In this document: positions 3,188 through 39,159 of the stretch, piece after piece
Layout of the letters: each line of letters starts with the position of its first letter
How positions within the stretch are numbered: position 1 is the stretch's first letter
IMG/VR virus record: IMGVR_UViG_3300033066_001842
Reading direction: 5' to 3' (one strand)
DNA from: a virus
Length of the DNA: 64,000 nucleotides
Position numbers and translations under genes: made by a program
Notes under the pieces: model-generated
Seen by the model: only the letters and a program-made list of their open reading frames with translations
Told to the model about the DNA's origin: nothing
Database searches by the model: none

Positions 3188-4013
3188 CGTTCCAATCCTT
3201 GTATTGTTTCTTGTTTACTTCCAACTCATATTCATTGGGTTCGCCGCCGTGTCTTAAGTAATAGCGAGTTCTAACTTTCCACCATGGCCAAGGTTTCTTA
3301 CTATTGAAAAAACGATGTACCATAATGATCGTATCGGGATCACTAAAGAATCTACTTGAACCTCTGGCATTGTGTACGTCCAAAGGATCATAACCTTCAG
3401 CATACTCTAGGTTTGGGGGTTTTCTAATATGGTGGGAAAAGATAATCGCCATATTAGTATCACTATTAATTTTTTGAAATTCAGCAAATACATTGAAGAT
3501 TTTTCCCATAGCTGTATTATTACTTTCTTCTTGGCTATGAAATTTTCCAATAGGATCAATAATCAAAATATTGGGTTTAACCTCTTCAATTACTTTTGCA
3601 AATAAATCTATACCTTCGTCTGTATCCAATTTGAGCTTTGGATTTTTTGAAACATAGAATAAATTCTTTTCTTTATACTCCTGTTTTACGCCGTCTAAAA
3701 TACGAAGCCCCCTATCTTGGAGGCTTAATTCGCCAACTTCCGCTTCTGCATACAATACCTTTACGGGCTTGGGTATTTTGAAATCCTTAATATTGAATAG
3801 GGTTTCCCCTGTAGCTAGGGCTCTAGCTGCATTGATACAAATAAAGGATTTACCAACTTTTGAATCTCCGTAGATACCAACAATTCCCCCTTGTGGAATA
3901 ATTGCAGGTTCTACATAAGATGCAACATCTTCAAACACCTTATCGGCTAGATGTTGGAAAGATTCAGCTTTTATTGTAGGTTCTTCGGAAGGTTTCTTAT
4001 TAAATACAGACAA
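3090..4013 (-). CDS. RecA-superfamily P-loop ATPase (DnaB C-terminal/RadA-like)
   Basis: Walker A GIYGDSKVGKSF and Walker B ILIIDPIGKF; 307 aa; the called ORF overlaps the 3' end of the neighbouring gene, so the true start may be internal. Confidence 0.45.
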   Translation of the reverse strand: MSVFNKKPSEEPTIKAESFQHLADKVFEDVASYVEPAIIPQGGIVGIYGDSKVGKSFICINAARALATGETLFNIKDFKIPKPVKVLYAEAEVGELSLQDRGLRILDGVKQEYKEKNLFYVSKNPKLKLDTDEGIDLFAKVIEEVKPNILIIDPIGKFHSQEESNNTAMGKIFNVFAEFQKINSDTNMAIIFSHHIRKPPNLEYAEGYDPLDVHNARGSSRFFSDPDTIIMVHRFFNSKKPWPWWKVRTRYYLRHGGEPNEYELEVNKKQYKDWNDGDLRVKYPRTEAYKKPFKGKPKDPEEQVPLF

Positions 4014-13350: not shown

Positions 13351-13505
13351 ATTTTTTCCTTGTTTGAATTTTGAACTATATTTCGCAAATAGTAACAGAG
13401 GGTATTACCCTACCGCTCCCATATTGTAAAGAGCAATCAAACCTTTAGGGTTCTTTTACCCGTGGTGGGAGCAATAAACTATCGGCATCGGTTCAAAAAA
13501 GTTGT

Positions 13506-13638
13506 TGGATGGGGTGAGATTCGAACTCACAACCTCTCGTTTAGCATACGATAAAGTTAATCAAAACGGTTCAAATTTACGTTTGAACTAAAAGGTAGAC
13601 TAACAGTTTTTAGCGCTCTACCATTGAGCTACCCACCC
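13506..13638 (-). ncRNA. tRNA-like RNA with a ~70-nt insert replacing the anticodon arm (element E1)
   Basis: ends pair as a 7-bp acceptor stem GGGTGGG/CCCATCC; D-arm GCTC-AATGGTA-GAGC; T-arm GTGAG-TTCGAAT-CTCAC; discriminator A, no CCA; the insert has a CTAAAA/TTTTAG helix closing a 14-nt loop and a GTTCAAA/TTTGAAC hairpin. Confidence 0.45.
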
Positions 13639-13652
13639 ATAAAAAAATCGGA

Positions 13653-13781
13653 GATTGGTAAAGGGATTCGAACCCTTATTAGCGGCTCTGAATGCAATAA
13701 CCTTTATCTAGTCGGTTCTTATAGAACTAAAAAGGGCGACAAAGATGTTTTTACGCTGTCCTACCATTAGACGATACCAAT
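13653..13781 (-). ncRNA. tRNA-like RNA with a ~70-nt insert replacing the anticodon arm (element E2, paralogue of E1)
   Basis: acceptor ATTGGTA/TACCAAT perfect; D-arm GTCT-AATGGTA-GGAC; T-arm AAGGG-TTCGAAT-CCCTT; no CCA; the insert shares TAAAAAC, a 6-bp helix TAAAAA/TTTTTA closing a 14-nt loop, a GTTC-TATAA-GAAC hairpin and GAACCG with E1. Confidence 0.45.
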
Positions 13782-13856
13782 CATAAAAGAAAATAATTAG
13801 AACTAAAAAGGGCGAAAGAACGTTTTATTCACCACTTCCCCGTATTTGGAGCGCCT

Positions 13857-13930
13857 TTCCAGAATCGAACTGGATACCATTGTTTTGCAGACAATCGACT
13901 AACCATTTGTCTTAAAGTGCATATGGTGGG
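13857..13930 (-). tRNA. tRNA-Cys(GCA)
   Basis: acceptor GCACTTT/AAGGCGC (A3·C70 mismatch), perfect anticodon stem ATTGT/ACAAT with loop CTGCAAA, T-arm TCCAG-TTCGATT-CTGGA, CCA encoded. Confidence 0.65.
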
Positions 13931-13933
13931 GAA

Positions 13934-13961
13934 GGTAAGATTCGAACTTACTATTGATTAA
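13934..13961 (-). other. orphan tRNA 3' half (T-arm plus acceptor 3' strand plus CCA) with no matching 5' half
   Basis: minus-strand read GTAAG-TTCGAAT-CTTAC-CTTCCCC-A-CCA; no complementary GGGGAAG-type 5' strand within 130 nt upstream; the HNH gene starts 90 bp away. Confidence 0.3.
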
Positions 13962-14052
13962 TTATGAGTTAATTGTGTTTACCTATAATTCTTTCAAAGC
14001 GGTTCTAATCACTTTCTTATATCTCTATACTAACATAAATAATGGGAGCCCG

Positions 14053-14472
14053 TCAAGGATTCGATCTTCCATGTTCCCTAATTCTATGACAGTTGGCACA
14101 GAGAACAACACATTTTGAAATTTCGTCATTAAGTTTATCAATAGGACTTAAAGTCATATGACTTACATTATATTTCTTATCCAAAGCATCTAAATGGTGA
14201 AAATCCATTACATAAAAAGGAAATTTTTTATGACAATCGAAACAAGGTTTATTTTTAGCTTCCCTTATAATATTTCTATTTAGTGCTTGTTTTATAACAC
14301 GTTTAATAGCTATTTTTTCTAAACGTTTTTTATTAGTTTTACAATATAAACTATTATGATCTTTTTGACATTGTTTACACCAAGGCTGTTTATAAATTTT
14401 TCCACTTTTATAGCGCCTTATATTAAAACAAGTTAGAGCCTTATTTGTTTGACATCTATTACAAAACTTCAT
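14053..14472 (-). CDS. HNH homing endonuclease
   Basis: CFDCHKKFPFYVMDFHHLD...CANCHRIREH; the C-terminal half resembles the HNH at 825..1250. Confidence 0.7.
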   Translation of the reverse strand: MKFCNRCQTNKALTCFNIRRYKSGKIYKQPWCKQCQKDHNSLYCKTNKKRLEKIAIKRVIKQALNRNIIREAKNKPCFDCHKKFPFYVMDFHHLDALDKKYNVSHMTLSPIDKLNDEISKCVVLCANCHRIREHGRSNP

Positions 14473-14512
14473 TGACTTTGATTCTATTATAACATATCAA
14501 AGTCTTTTTTAT

Positions 14513-14586
14513 GGAAGCGAGAGAAGGAATCGAACCTTCGATCTAACTTTCAAAGAGTTACGTTTTACCAATTAAACTATCTCGCC
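14513..14586 (-). tRNA. tRNA-Gln(UUG)
   Basis: acceptor GGCGAGA/TCTCGCT, D-arm GTTT-AATTGGTA-AAAC, perfect anticodon stem TAACT/AGTTA with loop CTTTGAA, T-arm GAAGG-TTCGATT-CCTTC, CCA encoded. Confidence 0.7.
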
Positions 14587-15077: not shown

Positions 15078-15226
15078 AAAATCCTTTTATTAGCGGGGAG
15101 CCCGATATACCTTTTATGGACTCCCCTATAAGTTTTTGCTTAATAATTTGTAATCAGAGTAGCCCACCAACACTTGATGTTAATCGTTTTGTTCTACCGC
15201 TGAACTACTCCCGCATAAATATTTTG

Positions 15227-15256
15227 GGGCGGGAGCTTGGATTTGAACCAAGGCAT
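15227..15256 (-). other. second orphan tRNA 3' half, possibly the 3' end of a ~150-nt tRNA-like RNA extending to about 15377
   Basis: minus-strand read CTTGG-TTCAAAT-CCAAG-CTCCCGC-C-CCA; the best upstream partner, GCGGGTT at 15371-15377, gives only 5 of 7 pairs; TTTAAAAACTG motif inside, as in E1/E2. Confidence 0.25.
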
Positions 15257-15408
15257 AAACTTTAGAGTTGTCAGTTGATCTCTTTTGTAATTAAAAGCAG
15301 GTGAACCTTCGGGGTAAAAAGTTAAACTTAAAACATTTCAGTTTTTAAATCTAAACTTTAGCCTGAAGTTAGAAAGGGAAACCCGCTAGGGCTCCCTCCC
15401 CGAAATCG

Positions 15409-16155
15409 TTAAGCGAACAAATAATTCAGAAGGGTTTTCCCAACCTTAATATTCGTGTCCGCTTCAAACTCGTTTGCACGGGCTCTGGCTTTACGGATGG
15501 CGCGAATCAACATATCACACCGATCCAAAACCTCAGCCTTTTGTGCTGGTGTATACTTTGCTGACCATTCCTGTTTGGTAAGGGTTCCAACAGGAACGTC
15601 TTTATCAATCAATTGAACTTGTGCGGGATGCTTATCAGTAGCAGGAGCCAATGTAAGAACCTCTTTATCTTTCTTGGTTCTCACCCCCGTAACAACTCGC
15701 GCCTGATAAATCCCCTTACCCTTTTGTTCATCTGGGCGGAAAGCTTTAGCAGGATCAAGAGTAGGAATCGCACGCGCCAAATTCTGAACTTCTTTCAAAC
15801 TCTTTTCCAGCGCCAAAAGTGCAGTGGCGGGAATATTCTTCAAAAGAATAGTTCCATCCTCCAACACTACATCGGCTTTGGCTTGTGTGTTGGCCACATC
15901 GATTTGAACTGAGGAATCCATAGCTTTGGCTACAATTCCAGAAACCCAATCCAACTCATGCTCCACAGTGGTTTGAATATCCAACTGCTCTTCTGTAACA
16001 GGAGGACGCCCCTCTTCATTACTTTGAAAAGTAAGCAACTTCGATTCAAAAAGCTGCCCCTTATTAGTAAACGTTGTGGTTAAATCTCCAAGGGCTTTAG
16101 TAGCTTGCCCTGCAAGATTGGATTCTACAGCCAAAATTTCATGAAGTTTTGACAT
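15409..16155 (-). CDS. hypothetical protein
   Basis: 248-aa ORF between the tRNA-like region and the Ro60 orthologue; no motif recognised. Confidence 0.45.
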   Translation of the reverse strand: MSKLHEILAVESNLAGQATKALGDLTTTFTNKGQLFESKLLTFQSNEEGRPPVTEEQLDIQTTVEHELDWVSGIVAKAMDSSVQIDVANTQAKADVVLEDGTILLKNIPATALLALEKSLKEVQNLARAIPTLDPAKAFRPDEQKGKGIYQARVVTGVRTKKDKEVLTLAPATDKHPAQVQLIDKDVPVGTLTKQEWSAKYTPAQKAEVLDRCDMLIRAIRKARARANEFEADTNIKVGKTLLNYLFA

Positions 16156-16520
16156 TTTATTTTCCTATATTAGAAATAATTTTAGCTACTTTATCATAGT
16201 GTGTATTACACAAATCACACACACCTATTGCCATAGAAAACAAAATAATAAAGCGTTTAGAAACTTTTTCTTGGGTAGTAAACCCTGGATAATCGCAAAC
16301 TAAAACTTTTTTTCCATAAAAATTGATAGCCCCTTTTAAAAACACCTAAGCCACTTCCCGTCAAGTAGTTTGCTTTTGGTGTTAGCTTTTTGTATTGAGG
16401 TACATAAAAATTAGAGGCTATCAATTTTATCCTCGGACTAAATGGGTTGATCTAGGAGTTTTTTTGTTTACCAATTAAGCAATAACCCTAAATCGAGCGG
16501 CCCAAGGATTTTTTTTAGAA

Positions 16521-18212
16521 TTAATCTTCGTCTTCAGTTAAGGCTTTTTCCGAATTAAACGCATGAATTACACTTGTTACATTCGGATCAAATCCCGTTA
16601 CATCCAACGAATAAGGATCACTATCACTAGCAAAACCAGCAACACCATAACCAGTAGACTGCATACCAAGAGACATCAATCTCGTTTTGGGCTTATTCAT
16701 AAGTTTACGATAATTTTGCGTTAATGTCAAGGGGTGTTCCCCTGTATTGAAATCGTTATCGGTGATATGAATGAAGCAATCCACGTCTTGCTTGTTCTTG
16801 ATAGCATGTTTAATTGGTAAACCTGCATCAGTGTAACCCGTATTATATTTTTTGGCTTTTGTAATAGCCGTTGAAATATTGTCGGTTTTGGTCAATGGCA
16901 AGTCATTCAGAACACTAGAGAAACATTTGACATCACACCATGGTTCTCTTTTTACAATGGTAAGGGCGATTGTGGCGGCGGCTTCACAGAAAGACATTAA
17001 ACCGTTCGCCATCATGCTAGACATTGAGCGCGAAACGTCAACAGAAACCATAAAGTTTTTGCCAGTAGCGGGGGCAACATCGAAAGAGTTGTTGAAAGCT
17101 TCTTCCAAAGCTTCTTGAATTTTGGGAACAGGTTTCCAGGTTAATGAACCTTTCAAACCTTGTCCTTTTCCATAAGTGCGCAGAGCAAACAAAAGTTTAA
17201 GAGGGTGAATTCCAGCTTTTGTCAATTGCTCAATATTGGTAAGGCGACGTACAACCGTTTTGACATCCTCATTAGTTCCTGAAAGTAAACCACTCGCAGT
17301 TAATGAAGAAAGTTGGCGAACGGTTGCCATGTATGGCATTTTCGCAAGTAGGGCTTGTTGAACTTGAGGCACATTTTTAAACCATGTGGGAATCATTTCA
17401 TGGGTCATATCGGTAGCCCCAATCAATTCCACAAGACGTTTAATTTGTGCGTCAGATTTTTCATTTTCTTTCCATGATTGGATTTCAATGAAAGCTTCAA
17501 TCTGGCGTCCCCCCTTTGTCAAAATTTTAGGATCAATATCGGCTAAAGCTTTTAAAACTCCAGCTTCATTTCCATTAACCACATAATTAATGAAAGAGTT
17601 TGTAATTGATCCTTGAAACTCAGGGTGGGAAAGGCGAAGTAAGTCCTGGTGCGACCAACCATCACGTTGACGATACTTCAATAATTGATAAACCAGTGAG
17701 TCAAATGACTTATCGGTGTACCAGTCACCTACATAACGTTTCAACATGCGGCCCCATCCACGCATTCCCGTAACAATTTCCGCAAAGTGAAATAAATCAG
17801 TACCAGTATTGGCAACATGTTTTAGTTCATTGAGGAACATATCACGAACAGTACGACTAGGATGCGATGCGCCTAGAGCCAAAGTATATAACATTGGTTC
17901 TTTTGTAAGAGCACGACGTTGGCTTGAAATTTCTCGAATCTTTTGAACAACTTCTTTGGGGAAATTTTGAATCATCGCTCGGATGTTCGCCGTATTTTGG
18001 GCCAAGAGTTGTTGCGATCCTACAGCAAAGGTATGATTTTCCACACCCAAGATAAGGAATTTTTCGAGAAACTGTTCAGGAGTAAGTTTCAGTGAGTATC
18101 CGCCCCCAAAATTAGGAACAGAGAACTTTGCATTTTTCCCCGTAACAGGTTTTGTTACAGGATTGCTTTTTGCAGTTTTGTTTTTCTTTTGAGAGTAAGT
18201 AGAAATGGGCAT
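16521..18212 (-). CDS. Ro60/Rsr-like protein (TROVE domain plus C-terminal vWA)
   Basis: 563 aa; ~370-aa N-terminal helical-repeat region followed by a vWA fold with MIDAS VSVDVSRSMS (DxSxS); size and domain order match Ro60 orthologues. Confidence 0.55.
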   Translation of the reverse strand: MPISTYSQKKNKTAKSNPVTKPVTGKNAKFSVPNFGGGYSLKLTPEQFLEKFLILGVENHTFAVGSQQLLAQNTANIRAMIQNFPKEVVQKIREISSQRRALTKEPMLYTLALGASHPSRTVRDMFLNELKHVANTGTDLFHFAEIVTGMRGWGRMLKRYVGDWYTDKSFDSLVYQLLKYRQRDGWSHQDLLRLSHPEFQGSITNSFINYVVNGNEAGVLKALADIDPKILTKGGRQIEAFIEIQSWKENEKSDAQIKRLVELIGATDMTHEMIPTWFKNVPQVQQALLAKMPYMATVRQLSSLTASGLLSGTNEDVKTVVRRLTNIEQLTKAGIHPLKLLFALRTYGKGQGLKGSLTWKPVPKIQEALEEAFNNSFDVAPATGKNFMVSVDVSRSMSSMMANGLMSFCEAAATIALTIVKREPWCDVKCFSSVLNDLPLTKTDNISTAITKAKKYNTGYTDAGLPIKHAIKNKQDVDCFIHITDNDFNTGEHPLTLTQNYRKLMNKPKTRLMSLGMQSTGYGVAGFASDSDPYSLDVTGFDPNVTSVIHAFNSEKALTEDED

Positions 18213-34417: not shown

Positions 34418-34492
34418 GGCTAGTTAGCTGAGATGGATTAGCTTTGGTCTGAAAAACCAAGCAGCTTGGATCGTTACCAAGACTAGCCACCA
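34418..34492 (+). tRNA. tRNA-Phe(GAA)
   Basis: perfect acceptor GGCTAGT/ACTAGCC, anticodon stem TTGGT/ACCAA loop CTGAAAA, T-arm CTTGG-ATCGTTA-CCAAG, CCA encoded. Confidence 0.7.
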
Positions 34493-34497
34493 GTTTT

Positions 34498-34574
34498 TGC
34501 ACAGATAGTTTAATTGGTAAAACAATGGATTCCAAACCCATTAGATGAGAGTTCAAATCTTTCTCTGTGTGCCA
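34498..34574 (+). tRNA. tRNA-Trp(CCA)
   Basis: acceptor GCACAGA/TCTGTGT, anticodon loop TTCCAAA closed by AATGG/CCATT with an A·C at 31-39, T-arm GAGAG-TTCAAAT-CTTTC, CCA encoded. Confidence 0.55.
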
Positions 34575-34712
34575 ATCTTACCAGAATTATACCCGTTTAT
34601 TTCTTAGCCGAAACAATAGTCTAGCTACCTATTGCGGGGTTCCGATTATTGCATTTTAGGACGCACAAGGAACATGCATTACTCTAGTGCTATAATTCTG
34701 GTATAGTCTTTT

Positions 34713-34787
34713 GTTCCGAGTTAGCTCAAAGGTAGAGCAAGCGACTGATAATCGTTAGACCATAGTTCGATTCTATGACTCGGAACC
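34713..34787 (+). tRNA. tRNA-Ile(GAU)
   Basis: perfect acceptor GTTCCGA/TCGGAAC, D-arm GCTC-AAAGGTA-GAGC, anticodon loop CTGATAA, T-arm CATAG-TTCGATT-CTATG; CCA not encoded. Confidence 0.65.
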
Positions 34788-34988
34788 ATTTTTATGCCTG
34801 AAACAAAAAAACAAATACAAGATAGACTTAAAACTGTAATGCCAATTGGTGACACAGATTTCACAGACATGTCTGAAACATCTTTTGTCATGTGGTTTAA
34901 TGGTCACTGCTTCCTGTGGAAATTTGATAAAGATTCCCAAAAATGGGATTGTATTGACGAACTCTAGTTTATATGTTATGCTAAATGT

Positions 34989-35064
34989 GGGTCTGTAACT
35001 CAATTGGCAGAGTAATTGGCTTTTAACCAAGAGGTTGGGGGTTCAATTCCCTCCAGACCCACCA
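34989..35064 (+). tRNA. tRNA-Lys(UUU)
   Basis: perfect acceptor GGGTCTG/CAGACCC, D-arm ACTC-AATTGGCA-GAGT, anticodon loop CTTTTAA, CCA encoded. Confidence 0.7.
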
Positions 35065-35073
35065 AATTTTTAT

Positions 35074-35148
35074 GGTCCTTTCGTCTAACGGATAAGGCAT
35101 TGCGCTACGAACGCAAAAATATAGGTTCGATTCCTATAGGGACTTCCA
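35074..35148 (+). tRNA. tRNA-Arg(ACG)
   Basis: acceptor GGTCCTT/AGGGACT (2 G·U), perfect anticodon stem TTGCG/CGCAA loop CTACGAA, T-arm ATAGG-TTCGATT-CCTAT, CCA encoded. Confidence 0.7.
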
Positions 35149-35157
35149 CAATTTTAC

Positions 35158-35248
35158 GGAAAGGTGACAGAGTGGTAATGTGCGATTCTGCTAAAATCAG
35201 GCTAACCTCTAAAGGGTTACGAAGGTTCGATCCCTTCCTTTTCCGCCA
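35158..35248 (+). tRNA. tRNA-Ser(GCU)
   Basis: 91 nt with long variable arm; acceptor GGAAAGG/CTTTTCC, anticodon loop CTGCTAA, T-arm GAAGG-TTCGATC-CCTTC, CCA encoded. Confidence 0.6.
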
Positions 35249-35434
35249 AAACTTTTAAAGGACATTTTTATGGCACGTATTTCTAAAGAACCTTGTGAAT
35301 TTTGCAAGGGTGAAAATTGTGTAGAAGTTTCTCAACCTAATGATTGGGATTCCGATTACAAAATCCATTGCCTAAAATGTGATAAAGTTTATTGGGTAGA
35401 CGGTGAAGACGGTTAATCTGCTATCCTAATTTTA

Positions 35435-35529
35435 TGGGAGTGATGCAAGGTTGGTAGACTTGCGCTGGTCTGTAAAACCAGTCTTTCTTAGAAAGTTAAC
35501 ACATTGGTTCAAATCCATTCACTCCCACC
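35435..35529 (+). tRNA. tRNA-Tyr(GUA)
   Basis: 95 nt with long variable arm; perfect acceptor GGGAGTG/CACTCCC, perfect anticodon stem CTGGT/ACCAG loop CTGTAAA, T-loop TTCAAAT, CCA encoded. Confidence 0.7.
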
Positions 35530-35551
35530 ATTTCTTTTTTAAGGACACCCC

Positions 35552-35929
35552 ATGCTAAGACGTTTTTTCCTAACCCTTCTACCTGCCTCGCTTTTGGCGA
35601 AACCATCCCCCAAAATTTCTACTTTTGAAAAACAATGTAGAATAATTGCATCCGAAAAATTAAAATTTCTTCGGGAAAATGTAACTCAACCGTTAGCTAT
35701 TAACGAACATAGATGGTTTACAAATTCTAAATACATTATATGTTATGAAATGTTTTTAGATGGAACAATCTGTTTACCCAATCCGGCAGGTTTAAAAGGC
35801 ACACAAATAGTTTGTTACGAATGTCCTAGTGATGAATCTAGAAAAAATTTTATCAACCTCTTAATCCTCACCAAGGGTCAATATAATACAGGGCGGTATT
35901 GCATCTTCGAAACTTCCGAATTTCTCTAA
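35552..35929 (+). CDS. secreted hypothetical protein inside the tRNA cluster
   Basis: signal-like MLRRFFLTLLPASLLAKPS; 125 aa, 5 Cys. Confidence 0.4.
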   Translation: MLRRFFLTLLPASLLAKPSPKISTFEKQCRIIASEKLKFLRENVTQPLAINEHRWFTNSKYIICYEMFLDGTICLPNPAGLKGTQIVCYECPSDESRKNFINLLILTKGQYNTGRYCIFETSEFL

Positions 35930-36171
35930 AAATGACACAATTAGAACAAATTATAGAATGGCAAGAACGTCTTGATAAGATACATCTTGCCCTATATCCT
36001 GTTTCTAAAGTGACGCCTATACCTGCCTTTAAAAATATAAACGATATCAAAGCTCTCCCCATATGGAAAATTAAAAAACTATATGGGGAAATTTTCTGTG
36101 CTTACTGTGAATCTGATAAAATCCTCAAACGAGACTCCTGCTCCAACTGTGGGGCTCCATACAACCATTGA
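35899..36171 (+). CDS. zinc-ribbon small protein
   Basis: CAYCESD...CSNCG. Confidence 0.3.
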   Translation: MHLRNFRISLKMTQLEQIIEWQERLDKIHLALYPVSKVTPIPAFKNINDIKALPIWKIKKLYGEIFCAYCESDKILKRDSCSNCGAPYNH

Positions 36172-36209
36172 CTACCTTATCAATAAATGATATAATCTTT
36201 ATATGGAAG

Positions 36210-36301
36210 GTGGGCTGCAATGGTGCGGAAACTGTCTTGAAAACAGTCCTATGTAGCGATCACTGCATAAGGGTTCGATTCCTTCACCTTCCTCCATTTT
36301 A
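36210..36301 (+). tRNA. tRNA-Ser(UGA)
   Basis: 92 nt with long variable arm; perfect acceptor GGAAGGT/ACCTTCC, perfect anticodon stem ACTGT/ACAGT loop CTTGAAA, CCA encoded. Confidence 0.65.
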
Positions 36302-36452
36302 TTTATGAAATATGATAAGGTCCATACTATAAATTGGAAAGTTATTGAAAAACAAATTGGAAAACCAAAAACAATTGACGACTATAGAAGGACTTATAAA
36401 ATAATTAACGGTAAATTAGTAGAGACTACTCCCGATTTACCCCACAAAACTT

Positions 36453-36530
36453 TGGCCTCCTAGCTCCAATCGGTAGAGGCAACGGACTTAAAATCCGTAC
36501 AGTCTGGGTTCGAATCCCAGGGGGGCTACC
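36453..36530 (+). tRNA. tRNA with Leu anticodon UAA but short (5-nt) variable region
   Basis: acceptor GGCCTCC/GGGGGCT (2 G·U), perfect anticodon stem ACGGA/TCCGT loop CTTAAAA, T-arm CTGGG-TTCGAAT-CCCAG, discriminator A73, CCA encoded. Confidence 0.5.
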
Positions 36531-36554
36531 ATTTTTGTTGTAAACTAAATATAT

Positions 36555-36630
36555 GGCGCGTTGATGTAATTGGCAACCATACCAGTCTTAGAAACTGTTT
36601 TTATAGGTTCGAATCCTATACGCGCCACCA
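36555..36630 (+). tRNA. tRNA with Leu anticodon UAG but short (5-nt) variable region
   Basis: perfect acceptor GGCGCGT/ACGCGCC, anticodon loop CTTAGAA (4 bp plus one mismatch in the stem), T-arm ATAGG-TTCGAAT-CCTAT, A73, CCA encoded. Confidence 0.5.
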
Positions 36631-36772: not shown

Positions 36773-37639
36773 ATGCAATTCCATTATGCCGTCTATTTCT
36801 ATGTCGGCTTTTCTGGACATTCCCCACACAGCAGCTTTAAACATTCTGCTGGTGAAATCCACATTAACTTAGACAAACCCCGTATTGAAAAAGAATTAGA
36901 ACGCAACAATATGGGTATCCTCATAATGGCACGCCTAACCTCCTCTGACGCCATTATGGAAACCATCGGCCTCCTAAACGCCCTAGAACATACATTTCCC
37001 TCTGAAAGAGTGGATCTCTTCATCCCCTATTATCCCTATTCCCGCGCTGACCGCGTAATCGGAAATGGTGGCGGGGATTCTTTTGGCGTAGAAATCATTA
37101 CCAACCTTTTTTCCGATGAAATTTGTCCTAACATTGGAAAAATTATCACCCTGGACACCCATTCTGCCGTTTCTCATTCCGTAGTAGATTCAGATATCCT
37201 CTGTCACTACGAATTATTCCAAGAATCAGGAATTAATATCCCCGTCCACGCCAACATTATTACCGTAGCTCCCGACAAAGGCGCTTCCAATCGTGCTTCC
37301 GTCTTTGCATCCTGTCTCAAAACAGGTTTAATCACTGCTTCCAAAGAACGCGATCTTGGTGGCCACATCTCCTATTACAAAGTTCCAGAAAACCTCCCCT
37401 CCAACGCCTACTACATCGTAATCGATGATATCTGTGATGGGGGCGCAACCTTCAATCTATTAGCAAAAAGTTTGCCCCAAAATGCTAAAAAAATTCTAAT
37501 CGTAACACACGGCATTTTTTCCCAAGGTGTAAATGCTATTCATGGTTATGATTATATTGTTACAACAAATTCAATTCATGATTTTCCAGCAACTTCAAAA
37601 AACTTTATTGTAAAGGATCTTACGAAATGTCTTGTGTAA
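36773..37639 (+). CDS. prs: ribose-phosphate pyrophosphokinase (PRPP synthetase)
   Basis: FIPYYPYSRADR (cf. Prs PYFGYARQDR) and PRPP-binding YIVIDDICDGGATF (cf. VDDIIDTGGT). Confidence 0.65.
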   Translation: MQFHYAVYFYVGFSGHSPHSSFKHSAGEIHINLDKPRIEKELERNNMGILIMARLTSSDAIMETIGLLNALEHTFPSERVDLFIPYYPYSRADRVIGNGGGDSFGVEIITNLFSDEICPNIGKIITLDTHSAVSHSVVDSDILCHYELFQESGINIPVHANIITVAPDKGASNRASVFASCLKTGLITASKERDLGGHISYYKVPENLPSNAYYIVIDDICDGGATFNLLAKSLPQNAKKILIVTHGIFSQGVNAIHGYDYIVTTNSIHDFPATSKNFIVKDLTKCLV

Positions 37640-39078
37640 ACCCTCTCCTCCATACTGATGTTTACAAGATGGGCCACATGGAGCAATATGCCCCTGGAAC
37701 TACCCGTATATATTCCAACATCGTAACCCGTTCCGCAAGAAAATATCCCGCCGTCCTAAATTTCGGAACACAATACTATCTTTCCGAATATCTTTCCAAA
37801 CCAATTACCAAAGCCCATGTGGACGAATTTCTCGACCTAAACAATCGTATCCTTTCCTCCACATCCAACGAAGTTTACACCAAATTACGCGCCCTTGAAA
37901 AATTAGGCTTCGTTCCCCTAATCATCAAAGCTTTACCAGAAGGTAACGTTTACCCAATTGGGACACCCCTTCTCACAGCTACAAACCATCCTGACTATCC
38001 AGAATTCGCGTGGACTGTCGGATTTTACGAAAGCTTACTTCTAAAAATCTGGAACACTTGTACCGTAGCCACTTTTTCGCGCAAACTAAAACAACTGTGC
38101 TACCTTTACGCCGACCTAACCTGTGATTCCAATCTCCATGTGGATTACCAAGTTCACGACTTCGGCTATCGTGGCTGCTCATCTGAAGAAACTGCCGCAA
38201 TCTCCGGTATGTCTCACCTAGTAAATTTTCTAGGCACAGATACCGTTCTCGCCGTAAAATACGCCAAAGACTACTATTACGCAACGGACCCAATCGGTCT
38301 ATCTGTCCCTGCATCCGAACATTCTGTAATGTGTTCTTTTGGCCCAACCAACGAAATCGATGCATTCCGCCACATGCTTAAAACATATCCTACTGGAATT
38401 GTTTCAATCGTGTGTGACACCTACAACATTTGGAAAGTTCTTTCAGAATTCGTACCCCTTCTGAAAGACGAAATTCTTGCGCGTAACGGAAAAGTAGTAT
38501 TTCGCCCCGACTCAGGCGACCAAGAAAAAATCCTTTGTGGAAACCCTGACGCTTCCGACCCTCTAGAAAAGAAAGGTGTCTTCCAACTCCTCTTCGAACA
38601 ATTTGGTGAATTTCCAAACAAAAAAGGATATCGCACCCTCCACCCAAAAGTGGGTGTTGTCTATGGTGACGGATTCTACTACGATAAATTCCACACGGTT
38701 TTCAACCGGATGAAAACTGACAAAATCTCCTCAGCCGAACTAACAGTAGGGGTTGGCGGAATTTTGCTCCAACAACACAACCGCGATGATATGGGTTTTT
38801 CCATGAAAGCCACCTATATCGAACAAAACGGTAACGGCGTAAACATCTTTAAAGACCCAATTACCGATCCTGGCAAAAAATCCCTCAAAGGACTGCTCTC
38901 CGTAACCCAAGAACCCTACCATGGGGGCTATACTTGGAAAACCAACCAAGAAATCACATGGGAACAAGAGAAAAGAGGGGCTTTACAGGTGGTCTTTAAT
39001 CGTGGTAAACTATTAAATCAGACTACTTTTGATGAAATTCGCAAAAGGGCCGATTCCTCAATCGTTAAAAGATATTAA
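37627..39078 (+). CDS. nadV: nicotinamide phosphoribosyltransferase (NadV/NAMPT-like)
   Basis: 483 aa, the size expected for NadV; HDFGYRG motif of the NAPRTase/NAMPT family; sits immediately downstream of prs, whose product PRPP is its co-substrate. Confidence 0.6.
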   Translation: MSCVNPLLHTDVYKMGHMEQYAPGTTRIYSNIVTRSARKYPAVLNFGTQYYLSEYLSKPITKAHVDEFLDLNNRILSSTSNEVYTKLRALEKLGFVPLIIKALPEGNVYPIGTPLLTATNHPDYPEFAWTVGFYESLLLKIWNTCTVATFSRKLKQLCYLYADLTCDSNLHVDYQVHDFGYRGCSSEETAAISGMSHLVNFLGTDTVLAVKYAKDYYYATDPIGLSVPASEHSVMCSFGPTNEIDAFRHMLKTYPTGIVSIVCDTYNIWKVLSEFVPLLKDEILARNGKVVFRPDSGDQEKILCGNPDASDPLEKKGVFQLLFEQFGEFPNKKGYRTLHPKVGVVYGDGFYYDKFHTVFNRMKTDKISSAELTVGVGGILLQQHNRDDMGFSMKATYIEQNGNGVNIFKDPITDPGKKSLKGLLSVTQEPYHGGYTWKTNQEITWEQEKRGALQVVFNRGKLLNQTTFDEIRKRADSSIVKRY

Positions 39079-39083
39079 TTTTT

Positions 39084-39159
39084 GCTTGGGAGGCTGAAGA
39101 GTGGAGGCACCGCCCTTACAAGACGGCTAAAGTGGGTTCAACTCCCACCCCAAGTACCA
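39084..39159 (+). tRNA. tRNA-Val(UAC)
   Basis: acceptor GCTTGGG/CCCAAGT (G·U at 1-72), anticodon loop CTTACAA (stem has one C·A), T-arm GTGGG-TTCAACT-CCCAC, CCA encoded. Confidence 0.55.

Follow-up and report, generated by a model that had tools for sequence, protein, structure and literature searches.

We identify a Ro60 orthologue, with its RNA-binding and MIDAS residues kept, in an uncultivated tailed phage represented by a 64,000-nucleotide stretch of DNA (the window). Four RNA elements encoded downstream of it (C, Z, A and B) combine an elbow resembling that of tRNA with a stem that bears a bulged C-CG(A) motif. Two of these, A and B, are topological isomers of YrlA and belong to an RNA class found beside same-strand Ro60 genes in numerous unrelated genomes of phages and bacteria. 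From these features we infer that the phage Ro60 probably forms a ribonucleoprotein with phage Y RNAs derived from the same-strand downstream tRNA cluster. Ro60-Y RNA particles are conserved from bacteria to humans, and human Ro60 is a major autoantigen in lupus and Sjögren's syndrome. The novelty of the locus rests in its RNA part (C, Z, A and B) and not in the phage Ro60 itself.

Table 1. Features of the Ro60 locus, with positions in the window
Feature	Coordinates	Strand	Basis or remark
Element B, tRNA-order Y-like RNA	13503..13638	minus	Rfam, pairing scanner, leave-out model R2
Element A, tRNA-order Y-like RNA	13650..13781	minus	Pairing scanner, leave-out model R2
Element Z, permuted Y-like RNA	13787..14018	minus	Co-fold of two flanks
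HNH endonuclease	14053-14472		
tRNA-Gln(UUG)	14512..14586	minus	Ordinary tRNA, CCA encoded
Element C, YrlA-layout (circularly permuted) tRNA-like RNA	15166..15279	minus	Pairing-scanner match
Conserved hairpin CUUC-A-GG...CC-C-CGAAG	15306..15368	minus	Upstream of element C
DUF7873 protein	15409..16155	minus	Between Ro60 and element C; confined to clade
Ro60/Rsr orthologue, 563 aa	16521..18212	minus	TROVE HEAT-repeat ring and Ro60-type vWA, complete MIDAS

A Ro60 orthologue in an uncultivated phage lineage

The boundaries of the Ro60 reading frame are exact, from ATG to stop. The original prediction, made from the letters alone, had assigned its product the TROVE and vWA architecture of Ro60, and Pfam, phmmer and predicted-structure comparisons agree. 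The helical N-terminal region matches TROVE (PF05731, E 4.2e-27, 95.8 bits against a cut-off of 23) and residues 387-552 match vWA_Ro60 (PF25045, E 1.1e-36), both well over the curated Pfam cut-offs. Residues 28-557 resemble PHROG 850, "RNA-binding protein" (E 1.8e-45). With phmmer the protein has full-length matches to human Ro60 (E 7.7e-72), Xenopus Ro60 (1.4e-70) and Deinococcus Rsr (1.8e-65), it matches solved Ro60 structures along its whole length at E 1e-72, and a profile search reaches E 1e-185. The kinship extends to the predicted structure: the AF2 model (pLDDT 84.5) is all-helical over residues 45-376, has the closed-ring fold of solved Ro60 structures, and returns only Ro60 among its best Foldseek matches in the PDB (TM 0.86/0.91, rmsd 2.8 Å). 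Superposition on 9nep, 1yvp and 2i91 gives TM 0.85-0.93 and rmsd 2.8-3.3 Å over ~540 columns.

K179 and R183 (K170 and R174 of Ro60), which we take to be among the RNA-binding residues, are invariant in a 25-sequence alignment. The Y RNA-binding surface is also kept at H196, which is near-invariant in the same alignment and corresponds to vertebrate H187 inside the KYRQRDGWSHQDLLRLSH motif; the H187S mutant of Ro60 loses Y RNA binding (PMC11277228). The MIDAS had been called intact from the stretch DVSRSMS (residues 392-398), and all five residues of the DxSxS...T...D pattern defined in PMC11277228 (D392, S394, S396, T461 and D485) are present and invariant across the 25 sequences. We propose that the reading frame encodes a functional Ro60 ring protein, predicted from its sequence to bind Y RNA.

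Phage Ro60 proteins were already known from 353 annotated phage records and a solved Thermus phage structure, so the window protein is a further member of the family, in a deep-branching uncultivated clade; viral contigs hold at least 440 matches to Ro60. The clade has nine members at 47-53% identity with synteny kept. TerL and the major capsid protein of the window phage are 24-30% identical to those of any cultured phage, a megablast of 20 kb of the window against the phage collection gave zero DNA matches, and a scan of viral contigs with a single protein gave just one poor match. The host could not be inferred through Ro60, whose closest cellular homologues are at most 38% identical and spread across many phyla. 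The "Ro-like RNA binding proteins" of actinophages (mycobacteriophage, Streptomyces and Gordonia phages) are of the same family, at most 33% identical to the window Ro60, and the window phage is unrelated to those phages. Thermus phage phiLo (NAR 2025, PMC12135203; PDB 9KOP, 9L5Y) likewise combines a Ro60 with nearby phage-encoded Y-like RNAs, Yrl1 and Yrl2. Its Ro60 is distant from ours (profile E 7e-19, TM 0.53-0.54 versus 0.86 to vertebrate Ro60), and its Yrls are described as stem-bulge-stem RNAs identified via a CGAA motif, with a tRNA-like module unmentioned (PMC12135203).

The window Ro60 lies within the replication module, beside a set of 22 tRNA genes, an arrangement that the window adds from an uncultivated lineage. 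The large tRNA set of the original prediction corresponds to 20 genes found by ARAGORN and two more by Rfam, and an HNH endonuclease, of the kind that it had placed in the neighbourhood, is there; HNH endonucleases are frequent in phage tRNA arrays, including arrays without Ro60 in the fetched flanks. The suggested RNA quality-control or tRNA-surveillance module may be one reading of this neighbourhood. A search of the 39 other window ORFs for an exonuclease, ligase or RtcB partner found none, and DUF7873 was rejected as a general Ro60 partner, the gene being confined to the clade of the window phage. The tRNA-Gln gene is kept in the RNA cluster of 7/7 clade loci with sufficient downstream flank. 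Elsewhere the phage encodes NAMPT and PRPP synthetase, another likely counter-defence module.

Four Y-like RNAs on the Ro60 strand

The tRNA-like RNAs that had been linked to Ro60 can now be sharpened to four Y-RNA-like elements on its strand, at most 3 kb downstream, and the "orphan tRNA halves" noted nearby exist as portions of these structured elements. C lies 1.24 kb past the Ro60 stop and Z 2.5 kb past it, with A and B at 2.7 and 2.9 kb; all are on the minus strand and within the range set for YrlA (at most 4 kb from Ro60, same strand; Chen et al. 2014, PMC4201824). The elbow in each consists of a T-arm, a D-arm or D-position hairpin, and a 7-bp acceptor. [quoted passage not shown]

Elements C and Z share the permuted topology of YrlA. 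C has the T-arm (15252-15236), acceptor and D-arm (15205-15191) in permuted order inside a terminal stem (15279-15274/15171-15166), its acceptor being a 7-bp hairpin (15235-15208) whose loop begins C-CCA. The four helices pair perfectly and covary in three loci of differing sequence (the window, L005 and L012), and C follows the DUF7873 gene in 3/3 loci that carry this gene. The hairpin upstream of C folds identically in the same three loci, with one compensatory change (GG/CC to GA/UC), and its CCGAAG (CCCGAAGG) resembles GNCGAAN0-1G, the Ro60-recognition motif near the YrlA 5' end (PMC4201824), with the first G replaced. A scan of viral contigs with this hairpin pattern found no further C-type copies. 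In Z, a terminal stem of 17 bp is combined with a T-arm and an acceptor of 7 bp (CUUCCCC/GGGGAAG); the 5' half of the element terminates in ACCA, and its motif variant is CCGCU. It departs from the YrlA layout in two ways: a whole tRNA-Cys gene (13847-13920) is nested in its acceptor loop, and the D position holds a non-canonical hairpin. The two flanks of Z co-fold at -45.1 kcal/mol versus -24.7 ± 2.8 for shuffles (z -7.2, 0/300).

A and B read in tRNA order. In A, the acceptor AUUGGUA/UACCAAU and D-arm are followed by AAAAAC, a basal helix and the cap hairpin GUUCUauaAGAAC, then by CCGAC, UUAU, a V region and the T-arm; CCA is not encoded and the tail is CUCC. In B, the acceptor GGGUGGG/CCCAUCC and D-arm GCUCAAUGGUAGAGC are followed by GCUAAAAAC, a basal helix (GUUAGUC/GAUUAAC), a cap hairpin, CCGUU, UUUAUC, a V hairpin ending GAGAGG and the T-arm, with the tail AACAAC and then U6. 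Both have an open 7-bp acceptor and a Y-type stem in place of the anticodon arm, with 80-84 nt separating the D- and T-arms and the anticodon loop absent. CCA is encoded in 20/20 ordinary tRNA genes of the window and in neither A nor B, which thus lack both the anticodon stem-loop and the encoded CCA of a canonical tRNA, as well as the permuted order of YrlA. The recognition motif, degenerate in A and B compared with YrlA, is nowhere exact in A (CCGAC) or B (CCGUU); exact GNCGAAN0-1G occurs in 6/21 viral tRNA-order elements tested.

Published YrlA descriptions place the T-arm 5' of the D-arm, which is precisely the difference from tRNA. A and B reverse this topology, with the D-arm 5' of the T-arm, the acceptor open and the Ro-type stem closed. 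The two layouts interconvert on paper: closing the YrlA 5'/3' terminal helix with a loop and opening its acceptor yields an RNA that reads D-arm first and T-arm last, as A and B do. The YrlA consensus termini, "AcUuGucGcc / acggCgaAuG", also correspond to "aCuuGcCc-loop-gGgcCGAAgg" of the tRNA-order class. A reversed orientation is also described for Yrn1 in the Deinococcus radiodurans Rsr-Yrn1-PNPase complex (RYPER), whose Rsr is orthologous to the window Ro60 (E 1.8e-65): its T and D features are oriented opposite to those of YrlA relative to the RNA ends, its Ro60-binding stem is built from the RNA's own 5'/3' ends, and its D arm is doubtful (Chen et al., PMC4201824). Unlike Yrn1, A and B have a canonical 7-bp acceptor at their free ends and the Ro-type stem at the position of the anticodon arm.

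In the ribonucleoprotein that we favour, the RNA cluster would be transcribed together with Ro60 or after it, and RNase P with 3' trimming would cleave at the 7-bp acceptor stems, as in M. smegmatis YrlA. Such cleavage would cut tRNA-Cys out of Z, open the hairpin of C where CCA is encoded, and leave A and B with tRNA-like ends. The CUU...C-CGAAG-type bulged stem may bind Ro60 on the outside of its ring, with the region of H196 taking part, and the tRNA-like elbow may attract a host tRNA-binding factor or exoribonuclease. PNPase offers a precedent, since a phage Ro60-Yrl-PNPase complex that hijacks the host exoribonuclease was reconstituted for phiLo (PMC12135203). The complex could then deal with structured or damaged RNA during infection, plausible targets being the phage's large tRNA pool or RNA damaged by a tRNA-attacking host defence. 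This would fit recent suggestions that the Ro60 proteins of phages take over host PNPase or work against host defences.

Ro60 might instead counter host defence mainly at the protein level and independently of Y RNA, for instance as an inhibitor of a host immune nuclease, with the RNA linkage as an evolutionary relic. Phage Bas63 is reported to counter the Ppl defence system through its Ro60-like gp130 (PhageMaP preprint), other proteins use the vWA/MIDAS face to interact with proteins (PMC11277228), and NAMPT and PRPP synthetase give the window phage a likely counter-defence module. We consider this improbable: the RNA-binding residues of Ro60 are conserved, its strand retains four structured Y-like RNAs whose helices covary, and the PhageMaP preprint itself raises the possibility that nearby tRNA genes are Y RNAs. 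A counter-defence role is also compatible with a Ro60-Y RNA particle, since the particle itself could be the counter-defence agent.

The tRNA-order class across Ro60 loci

RNAs of the tRNA-order class, of which A and B are members, run through acceptor, D-arm, A-rich leader, basal helix, cap hairpin, C-CGA motif, UUAUC, V hairpin, T-arm and acceptor over a total of ~115-140 nt. The analysis found more than 60 members, and the class is defined by covariance models R1 and R2, the latter trained solely on unrelated viral Ro60 loci with the window excluded. This leave-out model scores B at 78.1 bits (E 5.7e-18) and A at 66.6 bits (E 4.8e-15), both over the full model length; true window tRNAs score at most 51.4 bits, and the maximum in 481 kb of controls, including dense tRNA arrays, is 54.5 bits. 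Matches of at least 64 bits occur in 20/80 cellular Ro60 loci, every one on the Ro60 strand. Among 80 viral Ro60 loci, a pairing scanner found permuted cores in 30 and tRNA-order elements in 17, again all on the Ro60 strand. Altogether about 19 viral and 20 cellular loci have a member of the class beside Ro60 and on the same strand. Four phage-like tRNA arrays (L013, L022, L045 and L061) also contain permuted B-type RNAs but no Ro60 in the 5-10 kb that was fetched, so linkage to Ro60 is not obligatory or these contigs are incomplete.

Because the scanner selected tRNA-order elements by their acceptor, D and T helices and did not inspect the inserts, the insert helices and the covariance-model tests are the sole independent evidence for the class. 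The inserts share one folded architecture, and 21/22 are stabler than their shuffles (mean z -1.36). In the tRNA-order alignment, 89.6% of cells are paired, versus 64% when shuffled and 35-45% when slid; the insert helices, located by counting pairs between columns and by a structure line drawn up manually, show 71-86% pairing and compensatory changes. RNAalifold on a MAFFT alignment recovered the tRNA helices alone, since the insert helices are out of register in that alignment.

These data bear on a reading in which Ro60 is real, A and B are mere tRNA genes or pseudogenes with intron-like or decayed insertions, and the tRNA-like pieces around them are the debris of a fast-evolving, HNH-ridden array unrelated to Ro60. 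Rfam takes B for a tRNA carrying an insertion of 74 nt and gives the tRNA label to comparable elements elsewhere, phage tRNA arrays with HNH genes hold many odd tRNA-like fragments, and Chen et al. warn that tandem tRNAs can mimic YrlA (PMC4201824). We nevertheless regard debris as quite unlikely. The insertion architecture is conserved and its helices covary across unrelated genomes; the insert bears the YrlA terminal motif and, in the viral subset noted above, exact GNCGAAN0-1G; the anticodon loop is missing, and A and B are the sole tRNA-like genes of the window without an encoded CCA. The class adjoins Ro60 repeatedly, with 0 occurrences in the 481 kb of controls, and blocks of B are common to permuted, YrlA-layout RNAs of sister phages (L004, L005, L007, L008 and L011).

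It is very unlikely that the A-B tandem is a single permuted YrlA spanning the junction (with A giving the T-arm, the spacer the acceptor loop and B the D-arm), with tRNA order as a tandem-repeat artefact. The best window match to Rfam YrlA (RF02553; 13593-13704, 26.6 bits, E 0.02) does cross this junction, the A descending strand can pair with the B ascending strand (GACUAG/UUAGUC and GAAC/GUUC), and two viral loci with tandem units (L129, L158) are flagged under both readings; however, that match lies 42 bits under the gathering score of 69 bits, which none of the window elements reaches, UACCAAU...GGGUGGG pairs poorly whereas the within-unit acceptors are perfect 7-bp stems of unrelated sequence that unconstrained MFE folds regain, and a cross-unit reading is impossible for the single-copy tRNA-order elements at L144, L091, L122, L159, L176, L234 and L236. 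Relatives score 25-44 bits against Rfam YrlA, and 14 Ro60 loci with tRNA-order elements gave no YrlA match at the gathering level.

If A and B are Ro60-linked RNAs in tRNA order with a free acceptor, they would alter the stated definition of bacterial Y RNAs, in which the T-arm lies 5' of the D-arm, and the class would offer a concrete intermediate for the dimeric-tRNA origin model. They would also be simple single-piece substrates on which to study cleavage by RNase P, the addition of CCA, effector recruitment and possible aminoacylation. Annotation by Rfam, and perhaps by other tRNA finders, currently calls such RNAs tRNAs with insertions or misses them. Within the literature open to search, no description of the tRNA-order topology was found. 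A broader reading, which we put forward tentatively and think rather doubtful, is that tRNA-order Y RNAs are an unrecognised major class of Ro60 partners, matured by RNase P and the CCA-adding enzyme, and maybe the ancestor of permuted YrlA. YrlA would then have arisen via tandem duplication, and Z-A-B with the copies in sister phages would represent interconversion in progress. The phage RNAs could also, on the same broader reading, be tRNA decoys or sensors that direct Ro60, along with a nuclease recruited from the host, to tRNA-targeting defences or damaged phage tRNAs.

Further scans of the locus were less informative. Promoter and terminator scans gave matches below chance, the motif GGTTATYG is unenriched in the window (6 observed versus 4.6 expected), and a metagenome pattern scan returned 69 loci, mostly chance matches that the demand for a T-arm and D-arm context removed. 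The 365-nt gap directly after the Ro60 stop (16156-16520) was rejected as a structured RNA (fold z -1.45, no comparators); it contains a stretch like a tRNA 5' half, together with GUCCGAGG.

The Ro60 protein and its phage

The minus-strand ORF at the head of the RNA cluster is, with near certainty, a Ro60, as the original prediction of a 563-residue phage Ro60 orthologue at exactly this position had it. Both predicted domains are found in Pfam far above their curated thresholds, TROVE (PF05731, E = 4.2e-27) and the Ro60-type vWA (PF25045, residues 387-552, E = 1.1e-36), and residues 28-557 match PHROG 850 'RNA-binding protein'. Across all PDB chains, full-length phmmer matches are to human Ro60 (7.7e-72), Xenopus Ro60 (1.4e-70) and Deinococcus Rsr (1.8e-65); with a 25-sequence profile these become 1e-185, 2.5e-184 and 4e-169, against only 7e-19 for the Thermus phage Ro60 of known structure. 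An AlphaFold2 model (pLDDT 84.5, pTM 0.83) fits Ro60 structures with TM 0.86/0.91 and 2.8 Å across ~540 columns; RNA-bound vertebrate Ro60 is a closer match than either Rsr (TM 0.64) or the protein of the Thermus phage (TM 0.53-0.54). The MIDAS motif, predicted to be intact, is invariant in the alignment with relatives (D392, S394, S396, T461, D485), as are K179, Y180, R183 and W186 of a KYRQRDGW motif. Conservation extends to the Y-RNA-binding surface: the nearly invariant H196 aligns with vertebrate H187, a residue whose change to serine (H187S) reportedly eliminates Y RNA binding (PMC11277228).

Phage Ro60 is not new as a kind, and this protein adds a member to a known family; phage Ro60 with Y-like RNAs in a tRNA cluster is likewise a known kind of system. 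Ro60 and YrlA RNAs occur in >250 bacteria and 22 phages (Chen et al. 2014, PMC4201824), a Thermus phage Ro60 whose structure was solved with phage-encoded Y-like RNAs assembles with host PNPase (a 2025 paper, PMC12135203), and the Ro60-like protein of coliphage Bas63, with tRNA genes downstream, counters the Ppl defence system (a 2024 preprint). 'Ro-like RNA binding proteins' stand in 353 annotated phage records, mostly actinophages and all ≤33% identical to the window protein, relatives of which are encoded on at least 440 viral contigs. The clade to which it belongs is distinct and numbers nine metagenomic sequences (47-53% identity); relatives beyond it reach ≤39%. In this clade Ro60 is preceded by genes for a PD-(D/E)XK nuclease, a Sak4-like annealing protein and a 250-280-aa protein, and followed by small genes with or without DUF7873, the RNA cluster, a UDG-like gene and DNA polymerase A. 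Genes for a large terminase, portal, major head protein and podophage fibre protein mark the window as a genuine tailed phage; its structural genes share only 24-30% identity with those of any cultured phage, and no DNA match to it was found.

Features of the Ro60 locus and of other parts of the window
Feature	Coordinates	Strand	Basis or remark
Rfam tRNAs without ARAGORN call (two)	809-881 and 39084-39156	+	35.5 and 43.1 bits
Element B, tRNA order	13638-13503	-	same blocks as B-type RNA
Element A, tRNA order	13781-13650	-	same blocks as B-type RNA
Element Z, permuted, fourth window element	14018-13787	-	co-fold of tRNA-Cys flanks
HNH endonuclease, between tRNA-Gln and element Z in the RNA cluster	14053-14472	-	PHROG 2255, 1.4e-26
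Element C, C-type permuted	15279-15166	-	pairing scanner
Conserved hairpin upstream of C, with CCGAAG	15368-15306	-	one compensatory change
tRNA-5'-half-like stretch GGGUUAUUGCUUAAUUGGUAAAC, then AAAAAAAC and GUCCGAGG	16385-16512	-	directly 3' of Ro60 stop codon
Ro60 ORF, ATG start, 563 aa	16521..18212	-	ORF call
PRPP synthetase (ribose-phosphate pyrophosphokinase) next to nicotinamide phosphoribosyltransferase	36773-39078	+	PHROG 619, 1.7e-50; PHROG 448, 9e-151

Permuted and tRNA-order RNAs downstream of Ro60

Since Ro60 biology depends on Y RNAs, we examined the same-strand region downstream of the gene. The sole Rfam match to YrlA, the permuted bacterial Y RNA, is weak (13593-13704, 26.6 bits against a gathering score of 69), and 13506-13638 is labelled 'tRNA' with a 74-nt insertion. 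Sister phages carry, 3' of tRNA-Gln, a conserved ~140-nt RNA of YrlA layout: terminal stem, V hairpin (UUAUCGUAUG..ACGAGAGGUU), T-arm and closed 7-bp acceptor hairpin, followed by D-arm, GCUAAAAAC and return strand, with covarying terminal and acceptor stems. Permuted elements, located by a pairing scanner, fall into two types, of which the B-type is present in L004, L005, L007, L008, L011 and L067. The C-type lies directly 3' of the DUF7873 gene in all three loci with that gene (the window, L005 and L012); although the copies differ in sequence, 3/3 show perfect pairing in terminal stem, T-arm, acceptor hairpin and D-arm, and the acceptor loop starts N-CCA. In element Z, the flanks of tRNA-Cys co-fold at -45.1 kcal/mol versus -24.7 ± 2.8 when shuffled (z -7.2) into a 17-bp terminal stem, T-arm and acceptor stem CUUCCCC(ACCA)/GGGGAAG, which places the whole tRNA-Cys gene within the acceptor loop. 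These data show that C and Z have the YrlA layout. Further permuted tRNA-like modules occur 3' of the B-type RNA in L008 (8440-8760) and the same region of L004, one resembling Z/A (T-arm, CCUCUCC-ACCA-loop-GGAGAGG, then CUUCUCGCCUUUUUAUCC) and another reading GUUUCCC-ACCA...GGGAAAC, then D-arm, anticodon-like arm and T-arm.

Elements A and B run from acceptor 5' strand through D-arm, GCUAAAAAC, ascending strand, capping hairpin and C-CG motif to descending strand, UUAUC, V hairpin, T-arm and acceptor 3' strand. Published YrlA, unlike tRNA, has its T-arm 5' of the D-arm; its acceptor loop is closed and it lacks a free CCA end. A and B are instead in tRNA order, and the variation on the known system lies in this RNA topology. 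Each acceptor stem is a perfect 7 bp, unrelated in sequence to the other and recovered by unconstrained MFE folding. A and B are probably not ordinary tRNAs, as neither encodes CCA, unlike all 20 ordinary tRNA genes of the window (20/20). Tandem tRNAs can be misread as YrlA, a dimeric-tRNA artefact of which Chen et al. 2014 (PMC4201824) warned. Reading the A/B junction as one permuted YrlA is rejected: the junction 'acceptor' pairs poorly, and single-copy tRNA-order elements elsewhere allow no cross-unit reading. A and B very probably belong to a Ro60-linked class of structured RNAs.

Within this clade the RNA clusters have a mosaic make-up that combines permuted with normal tRNA-like units. 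One and the same RNA is permuted in sister phages, and the window has it in tRNA order, beside a tandem Z-A-B array. Dimeric tRNA transcripts are the proposed origin of YrlA, and both forms within one clade are how permutation by duplication is expected to look.

The tRNA-order class at other Ro60 loci

The tRNA-order topology is no quirk of this phage. Among 80 independent viral Ro60 loci, 30 have permuted cores and 17 have tRNA-order long-insert elements, all on the Ro60 strand and mostly <1 kb from the gene. The scanner required acceptor, D and T helices, which are thus not independent evidence; the inserts lay outside its criteria. They share a single folded architecture, with an exact GNCGAAN0-1G just 3' of the capping hairpin in 6/21 viral elements, and are stabler than dinucleotide shuffles in 21 of 22 cases. 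In a 22-sequence alignment 89.6% of cells are paired, versus 64% when shuffled (0/500 reach the observed value) and 35-45% when slid, and in the insert helices, where compensatory changes are many, pairing is 71-86%. A covariance model trained on viral sequences only, the window left out, gives B 78.1 bits and A 66.6 bits, against 51.4 bits for the window's best true tRNA; across 481 kb of control loci, dense phage tRNA arrays included, none of its matches exceeds 54.5 bits. It reaches ≥64 bits in 20/80 cellular Ro60 loci of many phyla, in every case on the strand of Ro60 and no farther than ~2.5 kb from it. Together these analyses show that a tRNA-order RNA class exists, covaries and is linked to Ro60, with A and B as members.

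At gathering thresholds Rfam calls ten class members 'tRNA' with a large insertion and makes no call for the others covered; it never calls YrlA in the covered loci. The YrlA termini (3' ...AcUuGucGcc / 5' acggCgaAuG...) match aCuuGcCc-loop-gGgcCGAAgg of the class, and because these consensus ends correspond, the tRNA-order form is YrlA with its terminal helix loop-closed and its acceptor loop opened. In Rfam 15 and the papers that could be searched, no description was found of a tRNA-order class or of a Y RNA whose acceptor loop holds a nested tRNA.

Many cellular Ro60 genes likewise neighbour same-strand arrays, each of 10-25 tRNA genes interspersed with tRNA-order Y-like RNAs, in Polyangium (L170-L172) and in Chloroflexota and others (L175, L178, L184, L188, L205, L238), so the pairing recurs in bacteria or in prophages within them. 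At a Chthonomonadaceae Ro60 gene (L213), gathering-level Rfam matches to the nematode sRNA family ceN72-3_ceN74-2 (2546-2617, 3381-3450) alternate with tRNA-order elements. We take this family to be a stem-bulge Y-RNA homologue, and the arrangement suggests that canonical stem-bulge and tRNA-order Y RNAs coexist in one locus.

Possible roles and neighbouring features

In M. smegmatis, the 7-bp acceptor stem of YrlA is cut by RNase P, the 5' half gains CCA, and both halves stay Rsr-bound. In C and Z, too, the acceptor stem is 7 bp long and an encoded N-CCA comes next, and by analogy both may be processed likewise; release of tRNA-Cys would necessarily open Z. The bulged CUU/C-CGAAG-type stem would dock on the Ro60 outer face near H196, and the tRNA-like elbow may bring in a host factor, a role for which PNPase sets the precedent in Deinococcus and in the Thermus phage. 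By these parallels, we consider the full Ro60-Y RNA RNP mechanism likely. Such a particle could keep the phage's pool of 22 tRNAs under quality control, deal with RNA that host defences have damaged, or act in counter-defence. A search of 39 other window ORFs revealed neither a nuclease nor a ligase as partner. Counting against strict coupling to Ro60 are the C-CG(A) motif, degenerate in A and B, and B-type RNAs in tRNA arrays lacking Ro60 within the fetched flanks.

Several metagenomic contigs (L013, L022/L029/L048, L045/L071, L061) carry 12-30 tRNA genes per ~12 kb and, besides several HNH endonucleases, encode a CspA-like protein, with a B-type permuted Y-like RNA directly 3' of its gene; no Ro60 was found within their fetched flanks. 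The window's own HNH endonuclease is probably a homing element of a sort common in phage tRNA arrays. The stretch directly 3' of the Ro60 stop codon has no T-arm, no significant fold (z -1.45) and no comparators, and its GUCCGAGG resembles vertebrate Ro-binding GGUCCGA; it could be a YrlB-like or decayed element. The two Rfam tRNAs are probably real, if unusual, because encoded CCA follows both, as in the window's other tRNAs. Directly 3' of the second tRNA cluster (34418-36630), the PRPP synthetase and nicotinamide phosphoribosyltransferase genes form an NAD+-salvage pair of the kind reported to counter NAD-depleting host defences.
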